A stretch of 64,000 nt of DNA from an uncultured Candidatus Saccharibacteria bacterium. GTDB lineage: Bacteria; Patescibacteriota; Minisyncoccia; Phycocordibacterales; PALSA-1337. Below the pieces are notes generated by a model. That model did no database searches. It had not been told where the DNA came from and saw only the letters and a program-made list of their open reading frames with translations. Below, piece after piece: positions 11,170-50,101 of the stretch. Numbering within the stretch: position 1 is the stretch's first letter; the number at the start of each line of letters is the position of its first letter. A program made the position numbers and the translations under genes. The stretch is taken from NCBI GenBank assembly GCA_964529025.1, contig CAZGUZ010000004.1, positions 4,805 through 68,804 on the forward strand. Reading direction: 5' to 3'.

Positions 11170-12456
11170 CTAATTATTTCGCAAGGATTCTCCGAGTTTT
11201 TTCATATATGCCGTTAAATTGTCAAAAAGAACGGCCTCTTGTGAGCGAGTTTTTGAGTCTCGCACCAAGACTGACTTTTCTACGGCTTCTTTCTTGCCCA
11301 TGATAATTGTATAAGGAAGATCGAGCTTTTCTGCGTGAGATACCTGTGCACCAAGCTTATCCTTAGGGAGTGATTGGTAGAGCGGTATTTTTGCATTTCG
11401 CAAGATTTCAATTACATGCAAAGAAAGGAGTTTTGCTTCGAAGCCGAGCTGAATAAAGTATACCCAAGGTTTCTTAGTTTTAAGGAGTGGTTTTCGTAGG
11501 ACTGGGTCTGAACCTTTAATAAGGAGCGATAGACCAACGCCGGGTATATCTTTTTTGGCCCCAACTTTTTTAGAAAGGCCATCGTAGCGAACCCCAACTG
11601 CAAGTGTTCTATTGCCTTTAGATTTCTTAGTGTCGTAATCAAGGTCGACGATTTCGAATATTGTTTCTGAACAATATTTTCGGTTACCAATGAGTGCATT
11701 GTTAATTTTATACGGTATACCGAGTGTTTCAAGGAATTCGAGCACTTCGCGGAAATGGTTGCGACTCGCTTCAGACAAAAATGACATTGATTTAGGAGCA
11801 AGGGAATTGATTTCTTTGCAGTACGAAGCAGTGCTTGTGACAAGCTCGAAAGGGTCACGTTTAAAAATCTGGCGCGCTTCGGGAGTCATGCTATTGATGT
11901 GTTTGCGGTAGTAGTTGGTGAGTTCGCGAGTGAAACGAGCGAGCGAATCCTTGTCTCCAACACTGTTGATTTCGACACCTATATTGGCATAACCTTCTTC
12001 GGCAAGCATCATACGAGCAGTTTGAATCAAGGTTGCTTCTGCAACACTGCGTGTGCTACCGATAATTTCGAGGTCTGCATATCGTGGATATGAACCTTTT
12101 TTACTTGATTCGCGTTGTATGTGCTGAGCGCTTGCTTTAATTGGCTCTGCAAAATACAGCATAAGAGGCTGAGACTGGCTGTACATATCCTCTTCATCAT
12201 ACATACGGAGTAGGGCTACTTTTTCTTCAACATGGAGGGGTAATTTAATTTCATCATGTTCAGTTGTTCCAACAAAATCACCCTCGGCAAATTCTTCTGA
12301 GGTTTTAATGTCATCTTTAGTAACGGTTGGTGTGGCGTGTGGCACAAAACCGTAGTACAAAGGTATTTCACCGATTTTATCGAGATTTTTCCACTCTAGT
12401 ATTGAAGGATTCTTCTCTTTCTTAAACTGAGACGCTTTATTTTTTTGAGGTGTCAT
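11170..12456 (-). CDS. histidyl-tRNA synthetase-like paralog (class II aaRS core, HisZ-like; function unclear)
   Basis: Contains HisRS-family motifs (RYADLEIIGS; VGVRYDGL similar to GGRYD) and an anticodon-binding-like C-terminus. It lacks the N-terminal GxRDFxP motif that the canonical hisS at 42822-44105 has. Confidence 0.5.
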   Translation of the reverse strand: MTPQKNKASQFKKEKNPSILEWKNLDKIGEIPLYYGFVPHATPTVTKDDIKTSEEFAEGDFVGTTEHDEIKLPLHVEEKVALLRMYDEEDMYSQSQPLMLYFAEPIKASAQHIQRESSKKGSYPRYADLEIIGSTRSVAEATLIQTARMMLAEEGYANIGVEINSVGDKDSLARFTRELTNYYRKHINSMTPEARQIFKRDPFELVTSTASYCKEINSLAPKSMSFLSEASRNHFREVLEFLETLGIPYKINNALIGNRKYCSETIFEIVDLDYDTKKSKGNRTLAVGVRYDGLSKKVGAKKDIPGVGLSLLIKGSDPVLRKPLLKTKKPWVYFIQLGFEAKLLSLHVIEILRNAKIPLYQSLPKDKLGAQVSHAEKLDLPYTIIMGKKEAVEKSVLVRDSKTRSQEAVLFDNLTAYMKKLGESLRNN

Positions 12457-16875: not shown

Positions 16876-19353
16876 ATGGCAAAAGATAATTCAAAGAAAA
16901 AAGAAGAAATAGTTGCAGCTCCCGAAGAGCGACTCAGTATCGTACCTCGTAGTATTACTACAGAAATGCGTGAAGCATATCTTGACTATGCTATGTCAGT
17001 TATTACTTCGCGTGCTTTGCCTGATATTCGCGACGGCCTTAAGCCGGTGCACCGCCGTATTCTTTTTGCAATGTTTGAAAAAGGCCTTACTGCGTCTGCA
17101 AAGTTTCGTAAGTCTTCCGTAGTGGTCGGAGACGTGCTCGGTAACTATCACCCACACGGCGACGTTGCCGTGTATGAATCTATGGTGCAAATGGCGCAAG
17201 ACTTTAAAATGCGCTATCCACTGGTGCAGGGACAGGGTAACTTTGGTAGTGTTGACGGTGACTCTGCTGCTGCTATGCGATATACCGAAGCCCGCATGTC
17301 AAAAGTAGCTGCTGAATTGCTCCGTGATATTGAAAAAGCTACCGTCGATTTTAGACCAAACTATGACGGTACTCGTAATGAGCCAACAGTATTGCCAACA
17401 GCTGTACCAAACCTTCTTTTAAACGGTACTCTGGGTATTGCTGTGGGTATGGCAACAAACATTGCCCCTCACAATTTGCGCGAAGTAGTAGAAGCAACAA
17501 ATTATTTTGTGGATAATCCTGATGCAACAAACGAAGATTTACTTAAAATCGTTAAGGGTCCAGATTTTCCTACAGGAGCAATAATGTATGGCGAAAAAGA
17601 TATTCACCATGCATATTCAACAGGCCGTGGTGGTATTGTGGTGCGCGGCGAGGCCGAAATTATCGAAGACAAAAAAGGCCAGTATCAAATCATCATTTCA
17701 TCGATTCCATACCGCGTTAATAAATCAGATCTTATTATGAAGATGGCTGATTTAGTTCGCGATAAAGTTATCGAAGGTATTCGCACACTCCGCGATGAAT
17801 CTGATAAAGAGACTCGCATTGTTATTGAACTCAAACAAGGAGCTCACCCAGAAAAGACTCTTAACCTTTTGTATAAGCACACCCAGCTCGAAGATACTTT
17901 CCATGTAAACATGGTGGCTCTTGTTAACGGCGTACCACAAACAGTTTCTCTTAAAACATTTATTGAAGAGTTCATAAGTCATAGACTCGAGGTTATTCGT
18001 CGTCGAACTCAATTTGACTTAACTAAAGCCGAAGATCGCGAACATATCCTTTTAGGTCTCAAAAAGGCTCTTGATCATATTGATGAAATTATTACTTTGA
18101 TTCGTGAGTCAAAAGATGCTGTTGCTGCACATGCTAATTTGATGAAAAAGTTCAAGTTTTCAGAGCGACAAGCAACCGCTATTCTTGAAATGCGTTTGCA
18201 AAAGCTTGCCGGCCTTGAGCGCAAAAAGGTTCTTGATGAATTGGCACAAGTTCAAGAGCTCATTGTTGAACTCAAATCTATTTTGGGTAGCGAAAAGAAA
18301 ATGCGTAGCATTATCAAAGCAGAACTCACTGAAATTTCTGCACGATACGGTGATGAGCGTCGAACAAAAATTGTTCGCCACGGTGTTAAAGAATTCTCTG
18401 CCGAGGATCTTATTCCCGATGAAGAAAGTGTTCTTGTCCTAACTAAGGGCGGCTATATTAAGCGAACAAGTCCTGATGAATACCGCAAACAAAAGCGTGG
18501 TGGTGTAGGGGTTGTTGATCTTGATACAAAAGATGATGACTTCATAACTCACCTTGTAAATGCTACAACGCATAGTGATTTGCTCTTTTTCTCTGATAAG
18601 GGTAAAGCATATCAAATTAAAATGTATGATATTCCCGAGGGTAAGCGCGCAACTCGTGGTAAATCAATCATGAACTTCCTTTCTCTTTCAGATGGCGAAA
18701 AGGTAACATCGATTTTGCCAATGCCAAAGGATAAAAAGACAGCCGAAAACCTAGCTCTCTTTATGGTGACACGACAGGGAACAGGTAAAAAGACTGGGGC
18801 TTCACAATTTAAAGAAGTTCGTCGATCTGGCCTCATTGCAATTACACTTGATGATGGTGATGAGCTTATGTCAGTACAGTTTGTAACTAAGGGTGATGAT
18901 GTTGTTATTGTTACTTCAGAAGGCCAATCAATTCGCTTTACCGAAGATGATGTTCGCGAAATGGGTCGCGGAGCAGCTGGTGTTCGTGTGGTAAAACTCG
19001 GAAAAGGTGATGCTGTTATTAGCGCAGATGCAGTATCAAAGAATGATGAAAAACCAATGCTCTTCGTTATGTCTGCAAATGGCTACGGAAAGCAAACATC
19101 ACTCGATGAATACAAAGTGCAAGGCCGAGGAGGCAGTGGTATTCTTACTATGAATGTTACGGCAAAGACAGGTGCAGTTATTTCGGCCAAGGTTGTTACT
19201 CCAGAACATACAGAAGTCGTAGCTATGTCAAAGAAGAGTCAGGTTGTGCGTGTTGATTTAAGTGAAATTCCTACACTTGGACGCGGAACACAAGGCGTTC
19301 GCGTAATGAAACTCCGAGATGGGGATTCCTTGGCTTCTCTGATTACCATATAG
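16876..19353 (+). CDS. gyrA: DNA gyrase subunit A
   Basis: [10 protein letters not shown] active-site Tyr region and C-terminal beta-pinwheel repeats. Confidence 0.95.
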
Positions 19354-19369
19354 ACAGTATACTGTAGGT

Positions 19370-19882
19370 ATGTTTTCTAATCCTACAGATAACTTACTCC
19401 AATTTGGAATTACCGAAGGAATGACGGTGGCTGATATTGGTGCGGGTAGTGGTCACTATGCACTTAAAGCAGCAGAACTTACTACGGGCAAAGTTTATGC
19501 TATTGATCTTATGCAAAATTTGCTCGATAAGATTAAAAGCGAAGCTGCTCATAAAAAGCTCGTAAATGTAGAAGTAATATGGGCAAATGCCGAAGAAATT
19601 GGCGGCACACGCTTGCGTGAAGCTTCTATTGATAGAGCTATTTCTTCAAACATTCTTTTTCAGCTCGAAAAGATTGATACATATTTACTTGAAATTAAGC
19701 GTATTCTTAAAAAGGGAGGTAAGCTTTTAATTATCGACTGGTCCGAAGCATCTTCTTTGAATTTATCCGAATTTGTGCCTAAAGATACAATTCTTGCCCA
19801 CCTTAAAAATACAGGTTTTGTGCTTGAGCAAAGTTTTAATGCCGGCGACCATCATTACGGTATAATTGCACAAAGAATATGA
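19370..19882 (+). CDS. class I SAM-dependent methyltransferase
   Basis: VADIGAGSGHYAL motif I. Confidence 0.6.
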   Translation: MFSNPTDNLLQFGITEGMTVADIGAGSGHYALKAAELTTGKVYAIDLMQNLLDKIKSEAAHKKLVNVEVIWANAEEIGGTRLREASIDRAISSNILFQLEKIDTYLLEIKRILKKGGKLLIIDWSEASSLNLSEFVPKDTILAHLKNTGFVLEQSFNAGDHHYGIIAQRI

Positions 19883-21189
19883 ATCAAATATCTAAGTTTC
19901 AAATTGGTCTTATTGGCGCTTTCGTCCTTTTTCTTGTTGGTGGCCTTATAGCATTTGCGACATATAAGGGGAGTTCGAGTTCGACAGCACTGCCACCAAT
20001 AACTATTTGGGGAACAATACCGAGCGATACATTCGGAAGCTTTTTTCAGGTATATAATGCGACATTACCGCAACAGCTTCCCATTACGTATATTCAAAAG
20101 TCTGAAGCAACAATTAGCTCTGAATATACCGAAGCCTTAGCCCTTGATACTGGTCCCGATATTCTTTTATTGCCAAGTGATCTTGTATTCCAGAATGAAC
20201 AAAAGATTTTGCCAATTCCTGCTCAAAGTCTTACTTTGCGCACACTGCGAGATGTCTTTATTCCACTTGCCGAGCAATATGCTCGCCCCTCAGGAATTTT
20301 AGCAGTGCCGTTTGCTGTTGATCCTATGGTTATGTATTGGAATCGCGATACATTTACTAATGCCGGTTTGGCAACATATCCACGTACCTGGGGCGAGATT
20401 CAAACACTGGCTCCACGTTTTTTGGTGACTGATGCTAATAAGAATTTGCGAAAAAGCCTTGTTTCACTCGGTGAATACCGCAATGTAACCCACTCTCGAG
20501 AATTACTTGGTTTGCTTTTTATGCAAGCAGGTAATCCCGTATACTCATTGCGTTCTGGTGAGGTTATGAGTTTTCTTGGTTTTACACAAGAACTCAAAGA
20601 CATTGCAGAAGATGTAATTAGCTATTTTGTTCAGTTTGCAAACCCTGTAAGCTCTACCTATTCGTGGAATCGTACGTCACCTCAGTCGAAGAGTGCTTTT
20701 ATAGCAGGAAACCTCGGTCTTTATTTTGGATATTCATCTGAGGTTAGTGACATTAGAACAAAAAACTTTAATTTGAACTTTGATGTTGCACCAATGCCAC
20801 AAATTGCTGGTTCGGGTTTACGTATGACCTACGGCCAGATCTACGGTCTTTCTATTGCTCGCAGCTCACGTAATCCAACGGCTGCTTTCACGGTTATGAT
20901 ACAACTTGCAGACTATGCCGCTCAAAAAGAGTGGTCTGCGCAAACAAAACTACCACCTGTGCGACGTGATCTTATTGCAGAAGGCACAATTGACCCTTAT
21001 CTTACGATTTTCTATGATGGTGCACTTATTTCACGGGGCTGGATTGAGCCAAGTTCACAAGGTACCGATCGAGCATTTCAAGGTCTTGTAGAATCAGTTA
21101 TTTCAGGTAGAGAAACAAAGATCAATGCCATTACAAGAGCTCATGATGAAATGCTCGTTTTATCACAAAGAATTAATGTTAATCAATAA
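19879..21189 (+). CDS. membrane-anchored extracellular solute-binding protein (family 1)-like protein
   Basis: N-terminal TM then an SBP-1-like pattern (ITIWGT...PDILLLPSD...VPFAVDPMVMYWNRDTFTNAGL..PRTWGEI). No adjacent permease genes. Confidence 0.45.
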   Translation: MNQISKFQIGLIGAFVLFLVGGLIAFATYKGSSSSTALPPITIWGTIPSDTFGSFFQVYNATLPQQLPITYIQKSEATISSEYTEALALDTGPDILLLPSDLVFQNEQKILPIPAQSLTLRTLRDVFIPLAEQYARPSGILAVPFAVDPMVMYWNRDTFTNAGLATYPRTWGEIQTLAPRFLVTDANKNLRKSLVSLGEYRNVTHSRELLGLLFMQAGNPVYSLRSGEVMSFLGFTQELKDIAEDVISYFVQFANPVSSTYSWNRTSPQSKSAFIAGNLGLYFGYSSEVSDIRTKNFNLNFDVAPMPQIAGSGLRMTYGQIYGLSIARSSRNPTAAFTVMIQLADYAAQKEWSAQTKLPPVRRDLIAEGTIDPYLTIFYDGALISRGWIEPSSQGTDRAFQGLVESVISGRETKINAITRAHDEMLVLSQRINVNQ

Positions 21190-21191
21190 AT

Positions 21192-21674
21192 ATGATTTAT
21201 AAAATTATCAATTCCTTGTGGGTAAGTGTCGCTGTGTTATTTGCTGTGATTTCTGTTGTGCCTCAGCAAGCACTTGCTCAGCCAGCTCAAACGGGCGGCG
21301 CTGTACAAACAGGGCAAAACAGAGACTACAGTGGTCTTGTAAAGTGCGATGGTTTTATTAAAGATGCGAATAATAAAGAACTTCCGGGTAATTATACTGA
21401 GTGTAATTTGGCCGCTATTGTGTCCATCGTACAGGCCCTCATTAGTTGGTTTTTTGGAATATCAGGCTCACTTGCAGCATTACTCTTTATGTATGGTGGT
21501 GTTTTATACCTTTCAAATAATCCAAGTAATATAGAAAAGGCTCACCAAATATTTACCAATACCGCCCTTGGTATTGGTATTGTTGCTACAGCTTGGCTAT
21601 TTGTAAAGACAATACTTGAATTTGTTGTAAAGCCAGAATATCTATCAATCGTTACAACCTTTTTTGGAAAATAA
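21192..21674 (+). CDS. VirB2/TrbC-like pilin family small membrane protein (paralog 1)
   Basis: Signal peptide plus two hydrophobic helices separated by a short loop; first of six tandem paralogs. Confidence 0.5.
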   Translation: MIYKIINSLWVSVAVLFAVISVVPQQALAQPAQTGGAVQTGQNRDYSGLVKCDGFIKDANNKELPGNYTECNLAAIVSIVQALISWFFGISGSLAALLFMYGGVLYLSNNPSNIEKAHQIFTNTALGIGIVATAWLFVKTILEFVVKPEYLSIVTTFFGK

Positions 21675-21675
21675 T

Positions 21676-22116
21676 ATGAAAAATAAAATTTTTGGAGCAG
21701 TGTGTGCAGTGTGGTGTACTCTATGTATCTTTTCAGCACCTCTACTTATTCAGAGTGCTCATGTTGAGCAAGCTTTTGCTCAGACCCCAACAGATAATCA
21801 AGGGCCAGCTACAACTGGTGGCGCTAGTCAATCGGGTGCAAAATTGCCTACATTGGGTAATCCGCTTAAAGTTAAATCAATTGCAGGTGTTGTTGATTTG
21901 GTTATCGGCCTTGCTTTACGCGCAGCTTTCATTGTTGCAGTCCTTGCAATAATGTACTCAGGCTTTCTGTTTGTTAAAGCGCAGGGAAGTGATGATGAAA
22001 TCACTCATGCTAAAACAGTTTTCTGGAATACGATTATTGGAGTTGCGCTTATATTTGGAGCAAGCGGTTTGGTAAAAATTATACAGGTAACTATTGAGGC
22101 CGTTAAAGCACCATAG
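21676..22116 (+). CDS. VirB2/TrbC-like pilin family protein (paralog 2)
   Basis: Same architecture: signal peptide, helical hairpin. Confidence 0.5.
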   Translation: MKNKIFGAVCAVWCTLCIFSAPLLIQSAHVEQAFAQTPTDNQGPATTGGASQSGAKLPTLGNPLKVKSIAGVVDLVIGLALRAAFIVAVLAIMYSGFLFVKAQGSDDEITHAKTVFWNTIIGVALIFGASGLVKIIQVTIEAVKAP

Positions 22117-22170
22117 AGAGGTTGTGGATAGTTAATAAAATTATACATGTATATGTGGCATAATATATAC

Positions 22171-22818
22171 ATGAAAACTTTAATTTTCCCTCGGTATATT
22201 TTTACAATTTTTGCTGGTGTAGTAGCATTTATTCCTTCGGTAAGTTTTGCCGCAAATAAAACACTGAGCGATCTTACATCTCTTTTGGGTTCGTATATGC
22301 AACAAGCCATATATCTTATTATGGCTTTTGCTGTTTTAACATTCGTTTGGGGAATTTATAATTATTACCTTAAGCCCGATGCTGATAGGGGTGAAGCAAT
22401 GAATTATGTTCTGTACGGTACTATTGGCTTCTTTCTCATGTTGTCATTCTGGGGCTTGGTAAATATTATTAAGAATACACTTGATCTTGATAATACTGCA
22501 CCAAGTATCCCAGTTATTCAGTCATTACAGTTTAGATCGGGTACTCCTGGGGTTGGTTCAGGCGGTGGAACATCTGGAGTTGGTTCTGGTGGGGGTACTT
22601 CCGGTGTAGGGTCAGGGAGTTCAAATTATGTGGCACCACTTCCAAACGGCTCAACTATTAATCCTGTAACCGGACAAGGCTCAGGCGGTGGTACTCCCGG
22701 ACAAGGTTCAGGTGGTGGTACTTCTGGACAAGGCTCAGGTGGAGTGCAAGGTGGAGTGGATTATACACCACCTGCGACTGGACCACTTGATTCGGGTGAT
22801 CAGCAAATCAACTCCTAG
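22171..22818 (+). CDS. VirB2/TrbC-like pilin family protein (paralog 3) with Gly/Ser-rich repetitive C-terminal tail
   Basis: Same N-terminal architecture; tail GVGSGGGTSGVGSGGGTSGVGSGSS...GQGSGGGTPGQGSGGGTSGQGSGG encoded by DNA tandem repeats. Confidence 0.5.
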   Translation: MKTLIFPRYIFTIFAGVVAFIPSVSFAANKTLSDLTSLLGSYMQQAIYLIMAFAVLTFVWGIYNYYLKPDADRGEAMNYVLYGTIGFFLMLSFWGLVNIIKNTLDLDNTAPSIPVIQSLQFRSGTPGVGSGGGTSGVGSGGGTSGVGSGSSNYVAPLPNGSTINPVTGQGSGGGTPGQGSGGGTSGQGSGGVQGGVDYTPPATGPLDSGDQQINS

Positions 22819-22830
22819 TCTATCCCTATA

Positions 22831-23325
22831 ATGAAAACATCACTTAGTGCCATTGTTCTCGGTGTCCTTGCAGCAGTTCCTTCATTTGCTCATGCTCAGA
22901 CGCTCACAACTCTTCAGGGAGTTATTGATTATGCAGCTCGACTTGGTAATGCTATTGTTCCGATCGTTATTTCTATCGGTGTTATCTACCTCGTTATTAA
23001 TATCGTACGATGGTTTATCATTGAACCAGGTGAAGAGCGAACAGCAGCACTTTACCAGGTTCTTTGGGCAGTTCTCGGTCTTTTCCTCATCTTGTCTATC
23101 TGGGGTCTTGTGAACATTCTTCGAAATTCATTCCAAACAAATCGATCAGCTCCTACAACTGAGTTCCCAACAGTGTTTGTGCCAAATATTGGTGGCGGTG
23201 GAACAACAAGGGGATCAAGTCCTTCACCAGTATCGGGGGGTAATAGTAATTTGCAAGGAGCTGTTGATTTTACTCCCACGCAAAATAATCCACTCAATTC
23301 AGGTAATCAGCTCCTTGATTCATAG
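22831..23325 (+). CDS. VirB2/TrbC-like pilin family protein (paralog 4) with Gly-rich tail
   Basis: Signal peptide MKTSLSAIVLGVLAAVPSFAHA plus helical hairpin; first 354 nt identical to the next gene. Confidence 0.55.
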   Translation: MKTSLSAIVLGVLAAVPSFAHAQTLTTLQGVIDYAARLGNAIVPIVISIGVIYLVINIVRWFIIEPGEERTAALYQVLWAVLGLFLILSIWGLVNILRNSFQTNRSAPTTEFPTVFVPNIGGGGTTRGSSPSPVSGGNSNLQGAVDFTPTQNNPLNSGNQLLDS

Positions 23326-23397
23326 TTCTCCACAGGGAAGAAAATGAGGTTAGTATTCTTTGGTATACTTAATATATCTTTAAAATAATTGTAACGT

Positions 23398-23760
23398 ATG
23401 AAAACATCACTTAGTGCCATTGTTCTCGGTGTCCTTGCAGCAGTTCCTTCATTTGCTCATGCTCAGACGCTCACAACTCTTCAGGGAGTTATTGATTATG
23501 CAGCTCGACTTGGTAATGCTATTGTTCCGATCGTTATTTCTATCGGTGTTATCTACCTCGTTATTAATATCGTACGATGGTTTATCATTGAACCAGGTGA
23601 AGAGCGAACAGCAGCACTTTACCAGGTTCTTTGGGCAGTTCTCGGTCTTTTCCTCATCTTGTCTATCTGGGGTCTTGTGAACATTCTTCGAAATTCATTC
23701 CAAACAAATCGATCAGCTCCTACAACTGAGTTCCCAACAGTGTTTGTGCCACGAATTTAA
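23398..23760 (+). CDS. truncated duplicate of paralog 4 (lacks Gly-rich tail)
   Basis: 100% nucleotide identity with 22831-23184 over 354 bp, then diverges into VPRI-stop. Confidence 0.45.
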   Translation: MKTSLSAIVLGVLAAVPSFAHAQTLTTLQGVIDYAARLGNAIVPIVISIGVIYLVINIVRWFIIEPGEERTAALYQVLWAVLGLFLILSIWGLVNILRNSFQTNRSAPTTEFPTVFVPRI

Positions 23761-23767
23761 TACAACT

Positions 23768-24076
23768 ATGAATTTAGGAGTTTTGATTGTGCATGCAGCA
23801 GCAAGCGACGAAGCTCTTAAAAAGGTGGATGCATATATTTCGGTTGTTGCAACAAATATATTAAATCCAATTATTGCTCTAGGTTTTGTAGCTGCAACAC
23901 TCCTCTTTGTTTGGGGAGTGTTTAGCTATATGAGGGGAGCTGCTGATTCTTCGGCTCGGGCAGATGGTGCACGCCATGTTTTGTGGGGTGTCATTGGTAT
24001 GGCAATTATGGTTTCTGTATATGGAATAATTAACTTTATTTCTGCGACAATGGTGAGTGTATTGGAAAAGCAGTAG
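23768..24076 (+). CDS. VirB2/TrbC-like pilin family protein (paralog 6)
   Basis: Helical-hairpin small membrane protein with the same Lx3WGxxNI-like pattern. Confidence 0.45.
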   Translation: MNLGVLIVHAAASDEALKKVDAYISVVATNILNPIIALGFVAATLLFVWGVFSYMRGAADSSARADGARHVLWGVIGMAIMVSVYGIINFISATMVSVLEKQ

Positions 24077-24094
24077 TAATAACTGATGATTTTG

Positions 24095-24160
24095 GCAAAA
24101 GAATAACCGCGCTTTATGGGCGCGGTATTTTGCTGGCCGAGTGACACGAGGTCACTCGGG
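24095..24160. terminator. two adjacent hairpins (ccgcgctttatgggcgcgg; ccgagtgacacgaggtcactcgg) between convergent transcription units
   Basis: Perfect inverted repeats; they mark the boundary between the AT-rich pilin array and the GC-rich island. Confidence 0.5.
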
Positions 24161-24673
24161 CAGTTTCTCGATCCAAATTGTCGATGCCGTTTGCACGGGC
24201 GACGACTGGTCGATCCAACACTCGAGGTATGTGGCAGGCGGGTAGTGAACCCGCTTGCTGCGGTCTCCGGGTTTGGCCCGGAGCTCGAGGTTTTCGTTTG
24301 AGTCTACATCATAGATGTAGCGACGGCTCATGTAGCCGTCCACCTGGATTACGAGCCTGAGGCCCGAGCCCAGGTGCTTCTGGTCAACCGAGAGCTTGAA
24401 GTTTACAACTCCCGGCTTAATGACGGTCGGTTGCCCGACTGAGAGCGGGTACACCGTCACGGTGTACTGCCGCTCATCGCGCTCCGTCTGACGGAATGCG
24501 ACGGTGGCGGCTTCGGCCTGGGATTCCTTGCGGATTCCCGAAACCCAAGCAGTGAGGGGCTCCTTGAGAGCTGATATGATGAGTAGTCCGACGATAATCG
24601 TCACCACCCACCGAATGATACCTACGATCTTCTTTGACGGATCGTTGGCACCTTCTTTTTTCTTGTCTGCCAT
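24152..24673 (-). CDS. hypothetical membrane-anchored protein (GC-rich island gene C; possibly NfeD-like beta-domain partner)
   Basis: N-terminal TM IIRWVVTIIVGLLIISAL then a soluble beta-rich domain; GC about 57%, unlike the host. Confidence 0.45.
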   Translation of the reverse strand: MADKKKEGANDPSKKIVGIIRWVVTIIVGLLIISALKEPLTAWVSGIRKESQAEAATVAFRQTERDERQYTVTVYPLSVGQPTVIKPGVVNFKLSVDQKHLGSGLRLVIQVDGYMSRRYIYDVDSNENLELRAKPGDRSKRVHYPPATYLECWIDQSSPVQTASTIWIEKLPE

Positions 24674-24677
24674 AGCT

Positions 24678-25745
24678 TTACGGGGTTCCTTGGTTCATGT
24701 TGACACCAGCAGGATTCAGGTCGAATGCCCGAACAACATCAGCGATTTGCTCAGGTGAACAGCCAGTTCTTGTCATGGAGGCAATGAGCGCATCGCGCCT
24801 AGCCGCATCGTCAGCTGCTGCATTCGCAAGTGACCGCCTTTGTTCGGTGAGTCTCCTCTCCATCGCTTCATCTTCTGAAGCGGTAGTGAGTGCTAGGCTA
24901 ACAATCTTGAATCTTCCCACAGCGATGCCAAGCTCAATTTGCTTAGGATCAAGTACGGTTTTCTCCCCGTAGCTGAGTTCAAGATGAGCAAGTGCCGCAG
25001 CTTGTCCAGTAGCCCCCTGAACACTGTCAGGGGTCTTCTGGGCAAACCACTGCCTCATGTAGTTGAGCACATGAAGGCGCACCTGTTCTTCGAGGTCTGG
25101 GTAACCTTTGCATTCTCCACTGAAGAATCGCTTAGCGGTGATTCCTGCAAGAGGTCGTATGACTTGGTACTGCAAAGAGAACTCCGCACTAGCAGTTCTC
25201 TGTACGAGGGTTGTTGACCCTGAGTCGGGAAGAGGTGCGGGCATAAGTGGAAATTGATCCTTAAGAACCAGCACCCTTGGCCCCACCTTGAACTTGGTTG
25301 CCACGGTTACCCATGGCGGCTTGACTGTGACAGTGACGGGCATGAACGCTCCATCTATCACTACTGGTGGACCCGTGTAGGACATAACCTTTGTCGGGTC
25401 ATCGTCTTCGATTTCCGGTATATCGAATCCCTTAAGCTCAACTGGGAAGTTAATGCCAAAAGGGTTCTGAAGTACCAGAATTTCATCTGCTTCGGGCACA
25501 ATGAGGTGCTTTCCGATGAAGAAGAAAGTTGAAATCAAAGTGACGGCCGTGAAGGATTTTGCCCCACACTTCCACCCTGAGAATCCAATAATCTCCCCCA
25601 TGGTGTTGAAGACGAATACTGCTAGCGCAGCCACAATGAGTGATGCGACTAGCGAGAGTCCTACATACCCTAGTGGGGTAGACAGGCGGTAGCCCCATTT
25701 CTGCTTGAAGCTTGCTCCCTGAGTTCTAGCTATTAATGTTGACAT
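24678..25745 (-). CDS. hypothetical membrane protein, possibly SPFH/band-7-like (GC-rich island gene B)
   Basis: Two N-terminal TM segments, a central mixed domain, and a C-terminal Ala/Arg-rich coiled coil (ERRLTEQRRSLANAAADDAARRDALIASM) reminiscent of SPFH proteins. Confidence 0.4.
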   Translation of the reverse strand: MSTLIARTQGASFKQKWGYRLSTPLGYVGLSLVASLIVAALAVFVFNTMGEIIGFSGWKCGAKSFTAVTLISTFFFIGKHLIVPEADEILVLQNPFGINFPVELKGFDIPEIEDDDPTKVMSYTGPPVVIDGAFMPVTVTVKPPWVTVATKFKVGPRVLVLKDQFPLMPAPLPDSGSTTLVQRTASAEFSLQYQVIRPLAGITAKRFFSGECKGYPDLEEQVRLHVLNYMRQWFAQKTPDSVQGATGQAAALAHLELSYGEKTVLDPKQIELGIAVGRFKIVSLALTTASEDEAMERRLTEQRRSLANAAADDAARRDALIASMTRTGCSPEQIADVVRAFDLNPAGVNMNQGTP

Positions 25746-25837
25746 GTAATGAACTTACCATTTGTTGAATGGCACCTTTCTGTATATATATTACAATATA
25801 AAATATAGAATGTCAAATATGTTAAATTATGAAAATT

Positions 25838-25866
25838 AGACAAAAGGAAAGGCGCGCCGCAAGCGG
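25838..25866. terminator. 22-nt perfect palindrome ggcgcgccgcaagcggcgcgcc with T/A runs on both sides (bidirectional terminator)
   Basis: Read directly; lies just 3' of the 25900-26601 gene. Confidence 0.55.
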
Positions 25867-25899
25867 CGCGCCGATTTTGTTGTACTACTGCCCGCACCG

Positions 25900-26601
25900 T
25901 TATTCCGGCGTGAACAGGACGATCCGAGGATCGTTACCGTCGTTCGAGATCTCAAACCTCCTGACGGGCATAGGTTTCTTCTGCCACTCGGCAAAAGGGA
26001 TTGTGCCACCGGTTTCAAGGAGGACGTTGATGACAACCCCTGGATCGGGGTCGATGTTGAATCTTACTCGATTACTGATCGTCACGGTGGCGACCTCGCC
26101 ACCGAGGAGTGAGATCGAGCCAACCTGGCTCGAGGTTGTCCAGACATACTCGAGTTGGGGCACCTTAACCTTCCTCTGCGCCTTTTCAGGCTCAGAATAT
26201 GTGCGTTCTGCACGTACCGACCCCGTTGGAGGACGGACGAGAGTAGAGCGCTCAAGGTGATGGTTCTCGTTGTCCAACTGGTCCTCCAACGCAGCGAGTT
26301 TCTTTCGAAGCTCCGCAGCGTCGCGGATTGCCGTGTCACGCGAATGTTCAATTCTCGAGACGTGGTTGGTGAGTTCGCGAATGCGGGCTTCCGAACCGCT
26401 TTCGACATCGTGCCGTCGAGGAGTTGTTGGCGAGTTCGTTGCACCGGCCGTGGTGGCCGCAGTTCGCTTCTCAGCAACCAACTGCCCCCCAAGCCAGTGC
26501 CGAACACTCGGCACGAAGAGGAGGGCGCAGGCCGTGATGATCACGAGCTTGAACCAATGAGCTTTGACGAATTTCCAAATAGCTGCCCAAATTGCTGTCA
26601 T
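25900..26601 (-). CDS. hypothetical single-pass membrane protein with coiled coil (GC-rich island gene A)
   Basis: TM LVIITACALLFVP, coiled-coil RIRELTNHVSRIEHSRDTAIRDAAELRKKLAALEDQL, C-terminal beta-rich domain; GC-rich. Confidence 0.45.
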   Translation of the reverse strand: MTAIWAAIWKFVKAHWFKLVIITACALLFVPSVRHWLGGQLVAEKRTAATTAGATNSPTTPRRHDVESGSEARIRELTNHVSRIEHSRDTAIRDAAELRKKLAALEDQLDNENHHLERSTLVRPPTGSVRAERTYSEPEKAQRKVKVPQLEYVWTTSSQVGSISLLGGEVATVTISNRVRFNIDPDPGVVINVLLETGGTIPFAEWQKKPMPVRRFEISNDGNDPRIVLFTPE

Positions 26602-26787
26602 GATTCCTTTCTGCCCGTACCTTCATGGTACGAGATCTGTTAATATCTTATCATACTTAAGCAGCAATGTCAATAGCTTGAGGTAACGTATTTAATATGA
26701 GAATCCTGCTGTTCTTTTTGCTATAAAATCTATGGTGTTAAAAAGAGTGCAGAAAAAACCGCAAATGCGGTTTAAATAATGTTAAAT

Positions 26788-26872
26788 TGGTGCTGGAGGG
26801 GAGACTCGAACTCCCACGGGTTACCCCGCTTGCTCCTAAGGCAAGTGCGTATACCAATTCCGCCACCCCAGC
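26788..26872 (-). tRNA. tRNA-Leu (anticodon TAG), CCA encoded
   Basis: Reverse complement GCTGGGGTGGCGGAATTGGTA...CTTGCCTTAGGAGCAAG...GGGAGTTCGAGTCTCCCCTCCAGCACCA; long variable arm. Confidence 0.85.
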
Positions 26873-26876
26873 AATG

Positions 26877-26949
26877 TGCTCCCAGTAGGATTCGAACCTA
26901 CGACCAATCGCTTAAGAGGCGAGTGCTCTACCAACTGAGCTATAGGAGC
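26877..26949 (-). tRNA. tRNA-Lys (anticodon CTT)
   Basis: Reverse complement GCTCCTATAGCTCAGTTGGTAGAGCACTCGCCTCTTAAGCGATTGGTCGTAGGTTCGAATCCTACTGGGAGCA. Confidence 0.85.
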
Positions 26950-26999
26950 TTGATAGAAAATATACCTTAAAACTTGATTTTGAGCAATGCTTGAGTGAC

Positions 27000-27140
27000 T
27001 GTGCTAGGGGAATTGAATGGGTGAATCGGTCACGCGTTAAAATTGCTACACAATTTTACGCTCGACCCCGCCTCCTGTGCACCGGTTCGCTACGCTCACA
27101 TCGGTGCTACAGTCCGGCTTTCGATTCCCGCCTCGGGCAC
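27000..27140 (-). repeat. copy E3 of the GC-rich repeated element, between tRNA-Leu(TAA) and tRNA-Lys on the tRNA strand
   Basis: Read on the minus strand: gtgcccgaggcgggaatcgaa-AGCCGGA-ctgtagcaccgatgtgagcgtagcgaaccggtgcacaggaggcggggtcgagcg...cgtgaccgattcaccc. The first 20 nt are a perfect inverted copy of the 3' end of tRNA-Leu(TAA). Confidence 0.5.
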
Positions 27141-27173
27141 TTAAATAAGCGCTTTCGCGCTTATAAAATACTG

Positions 27174-27255
27174 TGCCCGAGGCGGGAATCGAACCCGCAC
27201 GCCGTGAGGCCGCCGATTTTAAGTCGACTACGTATACCAGTTCCGTCACTCGGGC
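27174..27255 (-). tRNA. tRNA-Leu (anticodon TAA)
   Basis: Reverse complement GCCCGAGTGACGGAACTGGTATACGTAGTCGACTTAAAATCGGC...GCGGGTTCGATTCCCGCCTCGGGCA; long variable arm. Confidence 0.8.
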
Positions 27256-27349
27256 TTAATGGCTAGTATAGCTATATTTGGGCTTATGGTAAAGCGCAGA
27301 GAGCCTTGGAGTGGGCTATAAACTGTATGAGAGGGGTTTTAAAAAAGAC

Positions 27350-28033
27350 TTAAGAAAGCGGTTCTCTTGGTACATCTTTTTCTGCTACTTGAGCAAGCTT
27401 TGGTCGAACGATTTCGAGGAAAATATAGATTGCAACAAGGGCTACAATTGTACCACCGACAACAACAATACTCAAAACAAGAGGGTTCTTAATGATATCA
27501 ACGGTAGCTCCAAAGCCTACGAGTATAACTGTGGGTATAAGGCCAATGATACTGTGTATCCAAATAAAGCGCGAGAACTTAATCTTAGTTAAGCCAGCTG
27601 CATATGATACGACTTCTGGTAGTGGGGCAAAGACGATGCGGGCTATGATAAAGCCACGCATGTCTTCCATATAGGTTAGGACTGCATCGACATACTGTTC
27701 GCTTTTTGCATCAAGTAAAGCGTTAACGATCTTGCGGCCATAGATTCGAGAAATATAAAAGCTTATTACTGAACCCAATAAGTCACCAAGGACTATATAG
27801 AGCATTCCAAACCAAGGACCAAAAATCAAACCAGCAACAGGGTACAGGGGTGAGCCTGATATTGGGGCAGCAACGATGGTTGTTGCTTTAAGTAAAATAA
27901 GGACAATTGGAGCCCAAATGCCTGCTTTTGCTACGTATTCCTGGGCAGTATCAATAGGAATAAAGAATGAGGCTATAACAAAAGCTCCCAAAAGAGCAGC
28001 TACACCGAGCATTGTTCCGTATGATTTTTTCAT
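27350..28033 (-). CDS. DedA/TVP38/TMEM64 family membrane protein
   Basis: Multi-TM protein with a DedA-like core (LLKATTIVAAPISGSPLYPVAGLIFGPWFG). The start codon abuts tRNA-Cys, so the longer 28102 ORF start is rejected. Confidence 0.6.
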   Translation of the reverse strand: MKKSYGTMLGVAALLGAFVIASFFIPIDTAQEYVAKAGIWAPIVLILLKATTIVAAPISGSPLYPVAGLIFGPWFGMLYIVLGDLLGSVISFYISRIYGRKIVNALLDAKSEQYVDAVLTYMEDMRGFIIARIVFAPLPEVVSYAAGLTKIKFSRFIWIHSIIGLIPTVILVGFGATVDIIKNPLVLSIVVVGGTIVALVAIYIFLEIVRPKLAQVAEKDVPREPLS

Positions 28034-28034
28034 G

Positions 28035-28108
28035 AGGCGTAGGCCGGGATCGAACCGGCGCATAGCAGTTTTGCAGACTGCCGCGTTGACCAACTTCGCC
28101 ACTACGCC
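28035..28108 (-). tRNA. tRNA-Cys (anticodon GCA)
   Basis: Reverse complement GGCGTAGTGGCGAAGTTGGTCAACGCGGCAGTCTGCAAAACTGCTATGCGCCGGTTCGATCCCGGCCTACGCCT. Confidence 0.8.
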
Positions 28109-28150
28109 AACTGTGCCATACTAGAATAGCACAAAAACTCACGATATTCA

Positions 28151-28522
28151 TTATTTAATATCTGACTGTACTTCGGGGTTCGAAGAAATTTCTTCAATGC
28201 GCTGGCGATTCTTTTCGCCAACATCGAGAATAAAGTCAAAACGAGGAATTCTAAAGAGTCGAGATTTTTCTGTTACATAGCTTCGTAGATCGCTGCGCAT
28301 ACGTTTCAAAAATTCAAGTGCTGTTTCGGCCATTGAATCTGGTAGAACGGTAACGAAAATTCGAGCTTCGCGGCCTCGGTCAATGAGTTCGACACGAGTT
28401 ACAGTAATAAGAGAGGTGCGATTTGATTCACGCTCAATAAAATCTGCTGCGAGACTCTTAATAATATCGGTCATTCGACCATCTTTTTGACTTGAAGTTT
28501 TTTCTGTAATGAATCCTCCCAT
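28151..28522 (-). CDS. rbfA: ribosome-binding factor A
   Basis: About 120-aa protein downstream of infB; SLITVTRVELIDRGREARIFVTVL matches the RbfA KH-like core. Confidence 0.7.
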   Translation of the reverse strand: MGGFITEKTSSQKDGRMTDIIKSLAADFIERESNRTSLITVTRVELIDRGREARIFVTVLPDSMAETALEFLKRMRSDLRSYVTEKSRLFRIPRFDFILDVGEKNRQRIEEISSNPEVQSDIK

Positions 28523-42821: not shown

Positions 42822-44105
42822 CTATTTAAGCTGATAGTCTTTAGAAATTGTGCGAGTTTCGCCAGTTTCAAGATTCTTAATGTCAAAGCTACCACTATTC
42901 ATTTCGGTTTCGCCAAGAACAATAACGTAGGTTGAGCCGTGACGTTCTGCACTTTTAAATTGATCGCCAATTTTTTTAAGAGAATAATCAATAGCAACGC
43001 GTACTCCTTGTGATCTAAAGTTTTGAGCAATATCGTGCGCATAGCCAAAGATATTTTCGGCAAGAACGCATAGGGTGAGTGTTGGACCCGTAGTAATTGG
43101 TGGAAGCAGGTTATAAGTTTCGAGCACATCACGCATAGTAACGTCGCCCATACCAAAACCAACAGCAGAGATTGAATCGCCACCAAACATACCAACAAGA
43201 TTGTCATAGCGGCCGCCACCAAAAAGTGATCGGCGATTATCAGGATTCTTGTCGAAGATTTCAAAAACAATTCCCGTATAGTAGTCAAAACCACGCATAA
43301 GGGTTTGGCTAAAAACTACATTTGTAATACCAAGAGAATCGAGCCCAGAAATAACTTGGCGAATTTCATTAAGTGCAAGGTCACGCTCGGCAGACGGCGC
43401 TAAGTGACTTGTAAATTCTTCAAAGTTATTTGAATTGATAAGGGCAAAGAAGGTAAGGTTATGTTCGCCCATAATATCAATAGCGGCTTTCTCAAAATCC
43501 TCGGCACTAATTTTTGCTTTCTTATCAATGAGTTTTGAAAGAGCGTGCTCTTGTGTGTCAGAAAGCTTAAGAACCGACTTCATGATATAGGTCATGAGCT
43601 TTCGGTTATTGAGTCGAATTTCATAGTCAGTTGGCTTAAGGCCAAAAGCTGTCATGATTTGAGATGCACAAGCAATAACTTCGACTTCGGCTTGAATACT
43701 TGAAACACCAAAAATGTCGACATTGAGCTGCCAGTGTTCACGAAGGCGACCACGCTGTGGTTTTTCGTAGCGGAAAAGGTTTGGAATAGAGAACCAACGA
43801 ATTGGTGTTGGTAAGTTGCGGCGCTCATGTGCAACCATGCGAGCTACGGTTGGAGTCATTTCGGGACGTAGAGTAACTTCGCGATCGCCGCGATCAGTAA
43901 AGGTATAGGTTTGCTCATTAACAATTTCTTCGCCAGATTTTGCTCGGTAGAGCTCGGCTGGCTCGAGTACCGAAGCCGAATATTCTTCATAGCCAAAAGA
44001 ACTCACTACATTCTTCCATGTTGAAAATATATAATTTTGTATTGCCATGTCGCGGGGATAAAAATCCCGAACGCCCTTGTATGGCAGTGTTTCTAGGGTA
44101 GACAT
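42822..44105 (-). CDS. hisS: histidyl-tRNA synthetase
   Basis: GVRDFYP motif, GGGRYDNL motif 3, anticodon-binding C-terminus. Confidence 0.9.
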   Translation of the reverse strand: MSTLETLPYKGVRDFYPRDMAIQNYIFSTWKNVVSSFGYEEYSASVLEPAELYRAKSGEEIVNEQTYTFTDRGDREVTLRPEMTPTVARMVAHERRNLPTPIRWFSIPNLFRYEKPQRGRLREHWQLNVDIFGVSSIQAEVEVIACASQIMTAFGLKPTDYEIRLNNRKLMTYIMKSVLKLSDTQEHALSKLIDKKAKISAEDFEKAAIDIMGEHNLTFFALINSNNFEEFTSHLAPSAERDLALNEIRQVISGLDSLGITNVVFSQTLMRGFDYYTGIVFEIFDKNPDNRRSLFGGGRYDNLVGMFGGDSISAVGFGMGDVTMRDVLETYNLLPPITTGPTLTLCVLAENIFGYAHDIAQNFRSQGVRVAIDYSLKKIGDQFKSAERHGSTYVIVLGETEMNSGSFDIKNLETGETRTISKDYQLK

Positions 44106-48823: not shown

Positions 48824-50101
48824 CTAGGGAACTCGAATTCGCTTGAGGAGAGGTGAAATATGCACTGCAATATCGTAACTTAGTGTCTTTGCTTCACGAG
48901 CAATTGAATAGAGAGAGTTCTGGTGCATAAAATCTTCTCCGCTCATGACACAAACTTCATCACCTTCTTTAATAATCATAATTTGCGAAGCTAAAGTAAT
49001 ATCAATTGCAGTAATGTTCATGCTTACTCTTCCAATGATTGGGCAATAGATTTCATTAATACGAACGTTGCCATTATTAGATAATGCTCGAGGAATACCT
49101 TCGTTGTATCCAAGGGGGATTAGGGCAATTAAGCGGTCGCGCGGAGCAATGTATGTCATATTGTAACCGACACTTTCTCCAGCTTTTACTTTTTTTATAC
49201 CATAGAGCTTTGCATATACAGACATAACTAATTTAAGAGGAACAATGTCGTCGACAGTTGCACCAATGGTAAGGCCAAACATACCACCGCCAATACGTAC
49301 AACATTGGCATGTGCTTGATTTGCATAATAGGTTCCACCTGTATTACTGATATGTGTGTATTTGAGTTGCGGAGCAAAAGGCGAGAGTTCTTGTACTGCA
49401 TTATTCCATGTCGTGATTTGTTCGAGAGATTTTGTAGGATCAGCAGAATCAGAATCTGCAAAGTGTGAAGCAAAACCGTGGACGTGTATTTTTGCCTTCG
49501 GACAGACTTCCAAAAGTTCTTTGAGATCAGTAAATTCGTTCGGCTTTATGCCTTGTCGATTCATTCCTGTATCAATTTTGATGTGAATAGAAACAGGTAC
49601 GGGCTCGAATACTCGAGTTGGTTCGCCTTTGTACTCAATGCGGTACTTAATGAGGTCGCGGAAATGATCCATACTTGAAATCATGTATGAACAATGCGGA
49701 ATACTGTCATAGTGTATGGTGCGTGCCTCGGTGTAGCCGGCAATAAGGATAGGGAGGTGTGTGCTTTGTGCGCGCAAAGCTTGTGCTTCAAAAAAAGAAT
49801 CAACAACAAAGAATGGGATTTTGTCGGCAAAATTCTCGGTGAGAATTTGCGCAACAAGGGTTGCACCATGCCCGTATGCATTGCTTTTGAGTACAGGAGC
49901 AATTTTGAGCGGTTTGTCCGCCTGCGCTAAAAGTGCTGACCACGCAGAAAAATTGTGCTTAAGGGCAGATTCAGAAATGCGTACGGTAATAAGGGGAGGA
50001 AACTTGCCAGCTCGTGCCGAGCGCAGTTTATAAAATATTTGTCGCAAGTTACGACCTACGGTGTACAACCAATGTGTTATAAAAAACGGCATTTTATACA
50101 T
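48824..50101 (-). CDS. alr: alanine racemase with about 35-aa N-terminal extension encoded inside a tandem repeat
   Basis: PLP-Lys motif APVLKSNAYGHG. The ORF continues to 50200, but the first in-frame Met codons (MYKMPFF) lie at about 50101/50092. Confidence 0.75.
   Translation of the reverse strand: MYKMPFFITHWLYTVGRNLRQIFYKLRSARAGKFPPLITVRISESALKHNFSAWSALLAQADKPLKIAPVLKSNAYGHGATLVAQILTENFADKIPFFVVDSFFEAQALRAQSTHLPILIAGYTEARTIHYDSIPHCSYMISSMDHFRDLIKYRIEYKGEPTRVFEPVPVSIHIKIDTGMNRQGIKPNEFTDLKELLEVCPKAKIHVHGFASHFADSDSADPTKSLEQITTWNNAVQELSPFAPQLKYTHISNTGGTYYANQAHANVVRIGGGMFGLTIGATVDDIVPLKLVMSVYAKLYGIKKVKAGESVGYNMTYIAPRDRLIALIPLGYNEGIPRALSNNGNVRINEIYCPIIGRVSMNITAIDITLASQIMIIKEGDEVCVMSGEDFMHQNSLYSIAREAKTLSYDIAVHISPLLKRIRVP

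Follow-up and report, generated by a model that had tools for sequence, protein, structure and literature searches.

A probable VirB2-like pilin operon of Paceibacteria with a gene pair homogenised by recombination

Pilin arrays of Patescibacteria and related systems

VirB2-like pilin genes are known to form arrays in Patescibacteria. Arrays of 2-11 such genes occur in 383 assemblies, with a within-array identity of 25% on average and 54% at most (PMC12102498). The survey of Quiñonero-Coronel et al. 2025 counted 441 arrays, and a pilin was found near virB4 in 1135 of the 1948 pilin-encoding Patescibacteria assemblies (PMC12102498). In Southlakia epibionticum ML1, the pilin array is essential and sits within SEML1_0006-0019, a type IV secretion system (T4SS) cluster (Wang et al. 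2023, PMC10633639); its six divergent pilins are highlighted in a 2025 review (PMC12857230). Few features specific to Patescibacteria have been shown to be indispensable to epibiotic growth, and these arrays are one of them. The present work concerns six tandem pilin-like genes (g1 to g6) in a 64-kb stretch of contig CAZGUZ010000004.1, here called the window, in which g4 and g5 share a perfect repeat of 354 nt. The locus is fairly probably a chromosomal operon of VirB2-like pilins of Paceibacteria (Parcubacteria, Patescibacteria/candidate phyla radiation, CPR), with a g4/g5 pair homogenised by recombination, and would be used by a T4SS encoded elsewhere.

VirB2-like arrays are already published, and the array of the window belongs to them: its six genes fall within the published range for tandem pilin genes in Patescibacteria chromosomes. 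As in the described arrays, small tandem genes matching PF18895 or PF04956 encode about six divergent paralogs with a signal peptide and a helical hairpin, and they lie on the chromosome of a CPR genome outside any relaxase context. Unlike the Southlakia array, it is not located beside virB4 and forms an operon with a solute-binding-protein-like (SBP-like) gene and a methyltransferase gene 3' of gyrA. It also differs from published arrays in that g4 and g5 are 100% identical over 118 codons, which exceeds the published maximum, and in that two members bear long low-complexity C-terminal tails. The identical partial-gene tract, the pair of isoforms with and without a tail, and the conserved SBP-methyltransferase context away from virB4 are unusual. 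These features provide hints on subunit roles and reveal no new kind of system.

Agrobacterium VirB2, F-type TraA, and RP4 TrbC are likewise small proteins with a long signal peptide, two helices, and a short charged loop containing Arg or Lys, and both termini are expected on the same (outer) side. The window pilins differ from them in lacking a sequence match to solved pilins, in scoring below the PF04956 threshold, and in their monoderm host. Recombination between pilin copies within one genome is also a property of Neisseria pilE/pilS. However, pilE/pilS encode type IV pili unrelated to VirB2, and promoterless, 5'-truncated silent cassettes donate variable segments, whereas the window copies are 5'-complete, the conserved core is transferred, and the outcome is homogenisation. 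A cassette system of the pilE/pilS type was rejected, as neither copy lacks an ATG or a signal peptide and no further partial copies occur in the 64 kb.

The tandem pilin duplicates trwL and trwJ of the Bartonella Trw T4SS reportedly evolve in concert via recombination between repeats, as Nystedt et al. are said to have described in 2008. Tandem VirB2-family genes, concerted evolution, and fast-evolving surface-exposed parts would be common to both systems. Trw is reportedly a host-adhesion T4SS of a diderm with the whole machinery adjacent and with many-copy amplification of whole genes or segments; in the window, by contrast, homogenisation is confined to part of each of two genes, whose C-termini differ.

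Organization of the locus

The original prediction of six consecutive small genes was confirmed, with six + strand open reading frames (ORFs) at 21192-24076. The features of the locus are as follows.

19370..19882, +, small class I S-adenosylmethionine methyltransferase (Pfam Methyltransf_31/11/25); its stop and the SBP-like gene's start overlap
19879..21189, +, membrane-anchored SBP-like gene (SBP_bac_8 7.9e-13, SBP_bac_1 1.4e-12)
21192..21674, +, g1, pilin paralog of 160 aa (PF18895 36.8 bits)
21676..22116, +, g2, pilin paralog of 146 aa from ATG 21676 (150 aa from TTG 21664)
22171..22818, +, g3, pilin paralog of 215 aa from ATG 22171 (223 aa from ATG 22147; PF18895 30.8 bits)
22528..22742, +, repeats of the g3 tail, two blocks of 27-nt (9-aa) tandem units (repeat search and Tandem Repeats Finder, TRF)
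22831..23325, +, g4, chimeric pilin of 164 aa (PF18895 33.0 bits)
22831..23184, +, R1, copy 1 of the 354-nt perfect repeat (exact match; Logan unitigs end at 22860 and 23184)
23185..23325, +, D1, tail-coding segment of g4 (local DNA alignment to the 3' end of the g3 tail)
23326..23397, +, U2, 72-nt spacer 5' of g5 with a promoter-like site at 23360-23389 (TTGGTA-18-AATAAT)
23398..23760, +, g5, tail-less pilin of 120 aa (PF18895 33.3 bits)
23398..23751, +, R2, copy 2 of the 354-nt perfect repeat (exact match to R1)
23768..24076, +, g6, last pilin paralog, 102 aa from ATG 23768 (110 aa from 23744; PF18895 27.8 bits)
24106..24126, +, GC-rich hairpin with a T-run, likely the operon terminator (9-pair stem with 6 GC pairs; conserved in the related contigs L001 and L087)

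Independent gene calls on near-identical contigs place the starts of g2 at ATG 21676, of g3 at ATG 22171 or 22153, and of g6 at ATG 23768, which suggests that these are the true starts.

Concerted evolution of g4 and g5

Nucleotides 22831-23184 and 23398-23751 are identical over 354 nt, as predicted. The match begins at the A of the ATG, with zero shared bases upstream, and is the longest repeat in the window, where the only other repeat above 100 nt is an unrelated 187-nt tandem. Gene g4 consists of a g5-type core (codons 1-118) and a 46-aa tail. In g5 a stop follows after two more codons (CGA ATT TAA) and the ATG of g6 begins 7 nt after it, so the immediate stop that had been noted in the second copy is present. 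The g4-g5 pair is 99% identical over 120 aligned residues, while the other 14 of the 15 within-array pairs reach 17-39%. Over the 798 intra-array pairs in related loci, identity averages 31% and reaches 61% at the 99th percentile; only g4/g5 exceed 90%, in the window and in the related contig L083. A word-indexed homologue search with g4 gave six relatives only, so the g4/g5 subfamily is narrow.

Two related lineages, L083 and L084, are about 9% diverged from the window. L083 (ENA ERZ28593437, 8.7 kb, no Ns) keeps the gene order of the window and carries a perfect repeat of its own, 364 nt long, at the same spacing of 567 nt. Compared with the repeat of the window, 30 of 354 positions are different, affecting 12 codons synonymously and 12 non-synonymously, and all 30 differences are common to both copies in each genome. 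The probability of finding zero differences between paralogs when 30 are expected is approximately 1e-13. In L084, the repeat is about 91% identical to that of the window, and the ends of g4, the tail, the spacer, g5, and g6 are present. Between the window and L083, the tail plus spacer is orthologous at 84.5% and the repeat at 91.5%, and the g4 tail is far less like the g3 tail than like its L083 orthologue. Because the tail and spacer are orthologous and more diverged than the repeat, the duplication is older than the lineage split, and it is shown to predate the split of at least three lineages. Purifying selection is ruled out as the cause of the identity, since the synonymous changes are also common to both copies. 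These results indicate that g4 and g5 evolve in concert by gene conversion or unequal crossover and are not a fresh duplication. The recombination among paralogs that had been proposed is therefore real; it homogenises the pair and does not diversify it.

A single-nucleotide polymorphism (SNP) separates the two copies in one sample. In the independent assembly GCA_013566075.1, the source of contig L002, a synonymous SNP lies at repeat position 228, with G linked to the tail (g4 copy) and A linked to g6 (g5 copy). A second contig of this assembly begins 126 nt before the SNP, carries the A allele, and runs into g6. All relatives have A at this position, and the window has G in both copies. A g4-to-g5 conversion, unfinished in GCA_013566075.1 and finished in the window, would look like this; a mixture of strains could also be the source. 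The 5' border of the tract coincides with the ATG in the window. In L083 it is shifted 11 nt upstream, and g4 there is preceded by 11 nt from the spacer's 3' end.

History of the gene pair

The stop codon of g5 two codons past the repeat is kept in relatives (VPRI* in the window and in P0002, VPQI* in P0003), and its positional equivalent is 110-131 aa long in most of 59 related Paceibacteria arrays. In the nearest outgroups, L087 and L088, the core is 75-77% identical and the array comprises five genes with one g5-type gene. By these comparisons, g5 is the ancestral and canonical penultimate gene and g4 the derived chimera. The description of the second copy as a truncated variant was thus not upheld, and a pseudogene or truncation is ruled out by the conserved length, position, and stop codon.

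By its alignment, the segment D1 is a diverged copy of the 3' end of the g3 tail, extending through the stop codon and the next few bases. The local DNA score between 22684-22825 (end of the g3 tail) and 23194-23331 (g4 tail) is 48, compared with 20.5 +/- 3.3 for shuffled sequences, and both tails finish with G(G/A)VD(Y/F)TP...P(L)(D/N)SG(D/N)Q..(N/D)S. Two histories fit. In the first, a unit of about 567 bp (end of the g3 tail, spacer, and repeat) was duplicated in tandem and the first spacer was then lost. In the second, the core of an older, g3-like fourth gene was overwritten by g5. The 11 nt of spacer before g4 of L083 are compatible with both. In 21 of the 59 loci, g4 is more similar to g5 of its own genome than to g4 of the nearest relative; taxon sampling is sparse, and this count is the basis for no conclusion.

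In the L083 orthologue of g3 (L083:4581-5198), the C-terminal motif GGVDYTPP...SGDQQINS is replaced by ...SGGASEPHPDDVFNGGN. The replacement lies just 5' of where 11 nt of spacer sequence extend the repeat, which suggests a recombination scar or a frameshift at the g3/g4 junction.

C-terminal tails and the question of programmed variation

The tail of g3 comprises about 113 C-terminal residues, is rich in Gly, Ser, Thr, and Pro, and ends in ...GGVDYTPPATGPLDSGDQQINS. A 27-nt period is found at 22528-22616 and 22670-22742 (TRF, 2.7 copies, 89% matches). The g4 tail (23190-23260) is rich in Gly, Ser, Thr, Pro, and Asn, but TRF detects no DNA tandem repeat in it, even at a score of 30. The prediction of repeat-encoded tails therefore holds for g3 and not for g4. 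Long tails (at least 40 aa after helix 2) are present in 22 of 413 pilins of related loci, and in complete arrays 14 of 15 stand at the two positions immediately 5' of the spacer.

The tails were also predicted to be hypervariable, and this applies between lineages only. Between lineages they show 84.5-87.8% identity with indels of 9-aa units, compared with 95% for the SBP-like protein, g1, and g6, and they are the fastest-evolving parts of the locus. Within the strain, independent assemblies and runs yielded contigs whose g3 tail equals that of the window apart from one SNP (22570, in L001), and the g4 tail is covered by L002 only, where it is identical to the window. No tail-length variation was seen in the overlapping contigs of the strain.

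Contigs with one copy of the repeat exist in two lineages. L001 equals the window minus the 567-bp unit, with 99.97% identity upstream and about 98% downstream, and carries the derived G228 allele joined to g6. L092 (JGI 3300043339) equals L083 minus the 567-bp unit and is 100% identical on both sides; because these flanks are perfectly identical, an assembly difference is plausible. Either L001 and L092 represent true deletion alleles, formed by recombination between the direct repeats, or the assembler bypassed the loop.

These contigs bear on whether the locus is a system of programmed antigenic or phase variation, either by cassette exchange like that of pilE/pilS or with the 354-nt repeats as a switch that removes or amplifies the 567-bp unit together with the tail isoform and an internal promoter. 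One- and two-copy forms from the same or closely related populations, the joining of G228 to g6 in L001, and the fast evolution of the tails are what such a system would produce. The tandem pilin paralogs of the Bartonella Trw T4SS, in which concerted evolution and diversifying selection reportedly coexist, would be a precedent. However, no silent, 5'-truncated, or variant cassettes are present, and each copy is headed by a start codon and a signal peptide. The exchanged part is the conserved core and not the variable region, deletion of the unit is not readily reversible, tail length is constant in the strain, and the one-copy contigs may be artefacts of assembly. The antigenic or cassette interpretation first given to the recombination is not supported by its homogenising outcome, and programmed variation seems unlikely.

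In a related and equally doubtful scenario, the repeats are a selected device. Conversion would keep a tail-bearing "display" subunit (g4) able to co-polymerise with a major pilin (g5), and recombination between the repeats would excise or multiply the 567-bp unit with its tail and internal promoter. Epibiont cells would then differ in whether, or how densely, the T4SS filament bears the Gly-rich tail. Host attachment in Paceibacteria would thereby be under a phase switch based on copy number, and the one- and two-copy assemblies of two lineages would be accounted for.

The conserved operon

A homologue search with the SBP-like protein returned 80 loci, all from Patescibacteria metagenome-assembled genomes of Paceibacteria/Parcubacteria groups (Campbell-, Yonath-, Zambryski-, Taylor-, Lloyd-, and Nomurabacteria), the best being 94% identical. 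With a hidden Markov model (HMM) built from the window pilins, 4-8 pilin genes, mostly 5-6, were found directly after the SBP-like gene wherever the contig reaches; 59 loci have five or more. The array has a fixed internal grammar of 3-4 genes, a spacer (mostly 65-230 bp), a gene of ~120 aa (~110-131 aa), and a last gene of ~95 aa (~80-121 aa). Homologues of GyrA were found in 58 related loci, of the 170-aa methyltransferase in 79, of the SBP-like protein in 82, and of g6 in 65. About 80 Paceibacteria loci keep these genes in the order gyrA, methyltransferase, SBP-like gene, pilins. The predicted SBP-like gene upstream of the pilins is thus a regular part of this arrangement, and the Paceibacteria array is a conserved operon with the SBP-like protein and the methyltransferase by gyrA, away from virB4. 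No description of this context was found in the literature consulted on these arrays.

In the window, genes from gyrA through g2 are spaced by -4 to +16 nt, which points to co-transcription, and the gap between the SBP-like gene and g1 is 2 nt. The sequence of the U2 spacer is conserved in L083, L084, and L087. The Rfam search of 19000-28500 found only tRNAs.

Two side observations concern this region. The gene order spans class-level Paceibacteria diversity, and no ABC permease partner lies nearby. An AT-rich inverted repeat at 22134-22185, with 21-nt arms that are 81% complementary and a loop of 10 nt, reaches across the g2-g3 spacer into the first codons of g3, and a promoter-like site at 22114-22141 adjoins it; the repeat may be an operator or a transcript-processing site.

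Pilin family, topology, and proposed function

The gathering thresholds are 26.6 bits for PF18895 (T4SS_pilin) and 27.9 bits for PF04956 (TrbC/VirB2). Five of the six genes (g1, g3, g4, g5, and g6) pass the PF18895 threshold with the Pfam HMM. The g2 protein scores below both (PF18895 20.1 bits; PF04956 19.4 bits, E 0.0013) and has a match at 6e-26 to the HMM derived from the pilins of the window. No gene reaches the PF04956 threshold, and g2 is the sole match to this family. All six pilins show weak, sub-threshold NCBIfam matches to NF045849 (pilin-like, from a mycoplasma integrative and conjugative element) and no other NCBIfam match.

Hydropathy indicated an N-terminal signal-like hydrophobic segment and two hydrophobic helices of transmembrane length with a short charged loop between them in g1-g5. 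In g1, an insert of about 45 aa with two Cys lies between the signal peptide and helix 1. The hydrophobic stub of g6 is just 13 aa long and does not form a full-length signal segment, so the predicted topology of a signal peptide and a two-helix hairpin stood for five genes and only in part for g6. The signal peptides are of the Sec type with an AxA ending, e.g., FAHA|Q. An AlphaFold2 model of g4 (mean pLDDT 58) has helices at 28-63 and 68-103 with pLDDT 70-84, and residues 107-164 fall below pLDDT 50, as in a disordered tail. In a Foldseek search of this model against the PDB, the best E was 0.74 with generic helical hairpins only; a two-helix hairpin carries too little signal for this comparison to be informative. 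A type IV pilin reading was rejected, with no N_methyl or pilin Pfam match at E <= 1 and with Sec-type signal peptides. The sequence comparisons support six VirB2/TrbC-type pilin-like proteins; the family assigned by the original prediction was borne out by PF18895 in five of six genes and not by PF04956, and no sign of type IV pilins was found.

By analogy with described systems (PMC10633639, PMC12102498), the pilins would be exported by Sec and inserted as helical hairpins. A VirB4-type, monoderm-style T4SS encoded elsewhere may use them for a pilus-like filament or conduit on which the epibiotic lifestyle would depend. The g5 protein, with its own promoter-like spacer and conserved penultimate position, is probably a major pilin. 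The g4 protein combines exactly the same signal peptide and helical core with a disordered tail. The termini of VirB2 face the outside of the T-pilus (10.1101/2022.09.25.509369); by analogy, the g4 tail would decorate the exterior of the filament. Recurrent homologous recombination, as gene conversion or unequal crossover, keeps the 354-nt core identical within each genome, with tract borders where homology ends, at U1 versus U2 on one side and at the tail versus the stop codon on the other. Homogenisation may keep g4 compatible with g5: isoforms with and without a tail, whose common core is kept identical by recombination, argue that both must fit the same assembly. The direct repeats could also delete the 567-bp unit (tail, spacer, and one repeat copy), which would explain the one-copy contigs.

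Several results weigh against a homogenised pilin operon serving a T4SS. No VirB4, VirB6, or VirD4 is encoded in the window, where all ORFs of at least about 500 aa are other proteins, and within +/-10 kb of the 80 related loci there is no conserved ORF of VirB4 size; the large conserved ORFs are SBP, GyrA, and IF-2 only. The fold search with g4 matched neither VirB2 nor TraA, and the pilin profile found no pilin among PDB sequences, its sole match being a spurious glutathione S-transferase (E 0.34). We know of no filament seen for this pilin family. Promoter-like matches number 16 versus 12.6 +/- 3.6 by chance and are not above chance. The one-copy contigs may reflect assembler choices rather than real deletion alleles. 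The 100% identity can be inflated by bubble-popping in short-read assemblies, which would hide a SNP or two; the contrast between 0% paralog and 8.5% orthologue divergence still stands.

Because VirB4, VirB6, and VirD4 are missing from the window and no ORF of VirB4 size is conserved around the related loci, the grounds for linking the array to a T4SS are the family annotation and the literature. The products could instead be small bitopic or hairpin membrane proteins that act with the co-transcribed SBP-like protein and methyltransferase in an envelope function unrelated to a T4SS. The tight and conserved coupling to the SBP-like gene would agree with this, as would the lack of neighbouring T4SS genes and the non-specific fold search, and the PF18895 annotation is itself made by inference. 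This explanation is nevertheless rather improbable: the scores above the curated PF18895 threshold, the sub-threshold contact of g2 with PF04956, and the weak NF045849 matches of all six proteins speak for pilins. Moreover, VirB2-like arrays of Saccharibacteria sit inside an essential T4SS cluster (PMC10633639), and about 40% of pilin-encoding Patescibacteria assemblies have a pilin away from virB4 (PMC12102498).

Evidence that the duplication is real

The original prediction allowed for an assembly artefact. A single core copy would then exist, and the assembler would have traversed a graph loop produced by strain variants or chimeric joins. All data appear to be short-read assemblies, and one-copy contigs are known from both lineages (L001 and L092). 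An artefact would, however, still require the U2-to-repeat and repeat-to-tail junctions to occur in reads, and both are reproduced in L002. A 694-bp contig of GCA_013566075.1 reads repeat, tail, spacer, and 127 nt of repeat, is 100% identical to the window, and equals a 567-bp cycle plus an overlap of k=127. Logan unitigs of separate runs branch exactly at both borders of the repeat: those of SRR10036063 and SRR10036065 end 30 nt (k-1) into it, at 22860, and that of SRR10036059 ends at its last base (23184). The strain is present at 100% identity in runs SRR10036056-65. Three lineages diverged by about 9% share the topology, and in one sample the copies differ by the SNP at position 228, each allele with its own downstream context. 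The L084 scaffold has a 100-N gap inside g4, where the repeat stayed unassembled. A metagenome-wide scan with the first 21 nt of the repeat returned the already known contig only. The duplication is real, an artefact is very improbable, and other assemblies, if anything, collapse it.

A recent, independent duplication in each lineage without gene conversion, in which identity reflects youth, would account for the perfect identity of the copies but is extremely unlikely, since the window and L083 share the junctions, the 567-nt unit, and a tail plus spacer more diverged than the repeat, L084 also has the tail, spacer, and junctions (its unit length being hidden by the N-gap), the g4 tail is so far diverged from its g3-tail relative that the fusion must be old, and the 5' border differs between the window and L083, as separate conversion events would produce.

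Other features of the window

The remainder of the window encodes housekeeping proteins (FtsA, FtsZ, S1, GyrA, IF-2, ClpB, HisRS, BipA, Alr, ParB, TopA, DprA, and SerRS). The search for a VirB4, VirB11, or PilB ATPase that had been proposed as a check found none among the window ORFs. The stretch at 24100-26700 is GC-rich (48-51% versus ~41%) and is flanked by the terminator of the pilin operon and by a cluster of tRNA genes (Leu, Lys, Leu, Cys; 26788-28108). Its three - strand ORFs (24152-24673, 24678-25745, and 25900-26601) have no Pfam match and have homologues only in the 2-5 closest relatives, and the stretch may have been inserted in this lineage alone. At this position, more distant Paceibacteria encode a membrane protein and a Band_7/SPFH protein, without detectable similarity to the three ORFs. 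The three ORFs were rejected as T4SS or SPFH components, with no Pfam match and no similarity to the Band_7 protein of L012.

A 187-nt tandem duplication at 49992-50365, whose copies are 95% identical, extends over the 5' end of the ORF for alanine racemase (48824-50200, -), which has an unusually long N-terminal extension. A GC-rich element of 94 nt occurs twice, at 1356-1449 and 2210-2303, with 79% identity, and Rfam gave no match at E <= 0.1. One copy is intergenic, and the other extends over the 5' end of the next ORF (2267-2899); the element may represent a structured RNA of no known class or a repeat with a regulatory role. Two genes like class II aminoacyl-tRNA synthetases with HisRS-type anticodon-binding domains are present at 11170-12456 (-) and 42822-44105 (-). 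The latter is a clear HisRS (1.6e-47), and the former matches tRNA-synt_His weakly (2.7e-4) and may be a divergent HisRS paralog or another aminoacyl-tRNA synthetase.

The gene dprA, from which a DNA-uptake apparatus had been suspected, is present at 58503-59417 (-), 35 kb from the array. It is a housekeeping neighbour of topA, and together with the lack of VirB4, VirB11, and PilB in the window this means that nothing points to a local DNA-uptake apparatus. The genes parB (55097-56170), topA (56188-58392, -), and dprA are grouped, and gyrA lies at 16876-19353. This grouping may place the window near the replication origin, which would fit a published note that T4SS genes of Patescibacteria are often origin-proximal.

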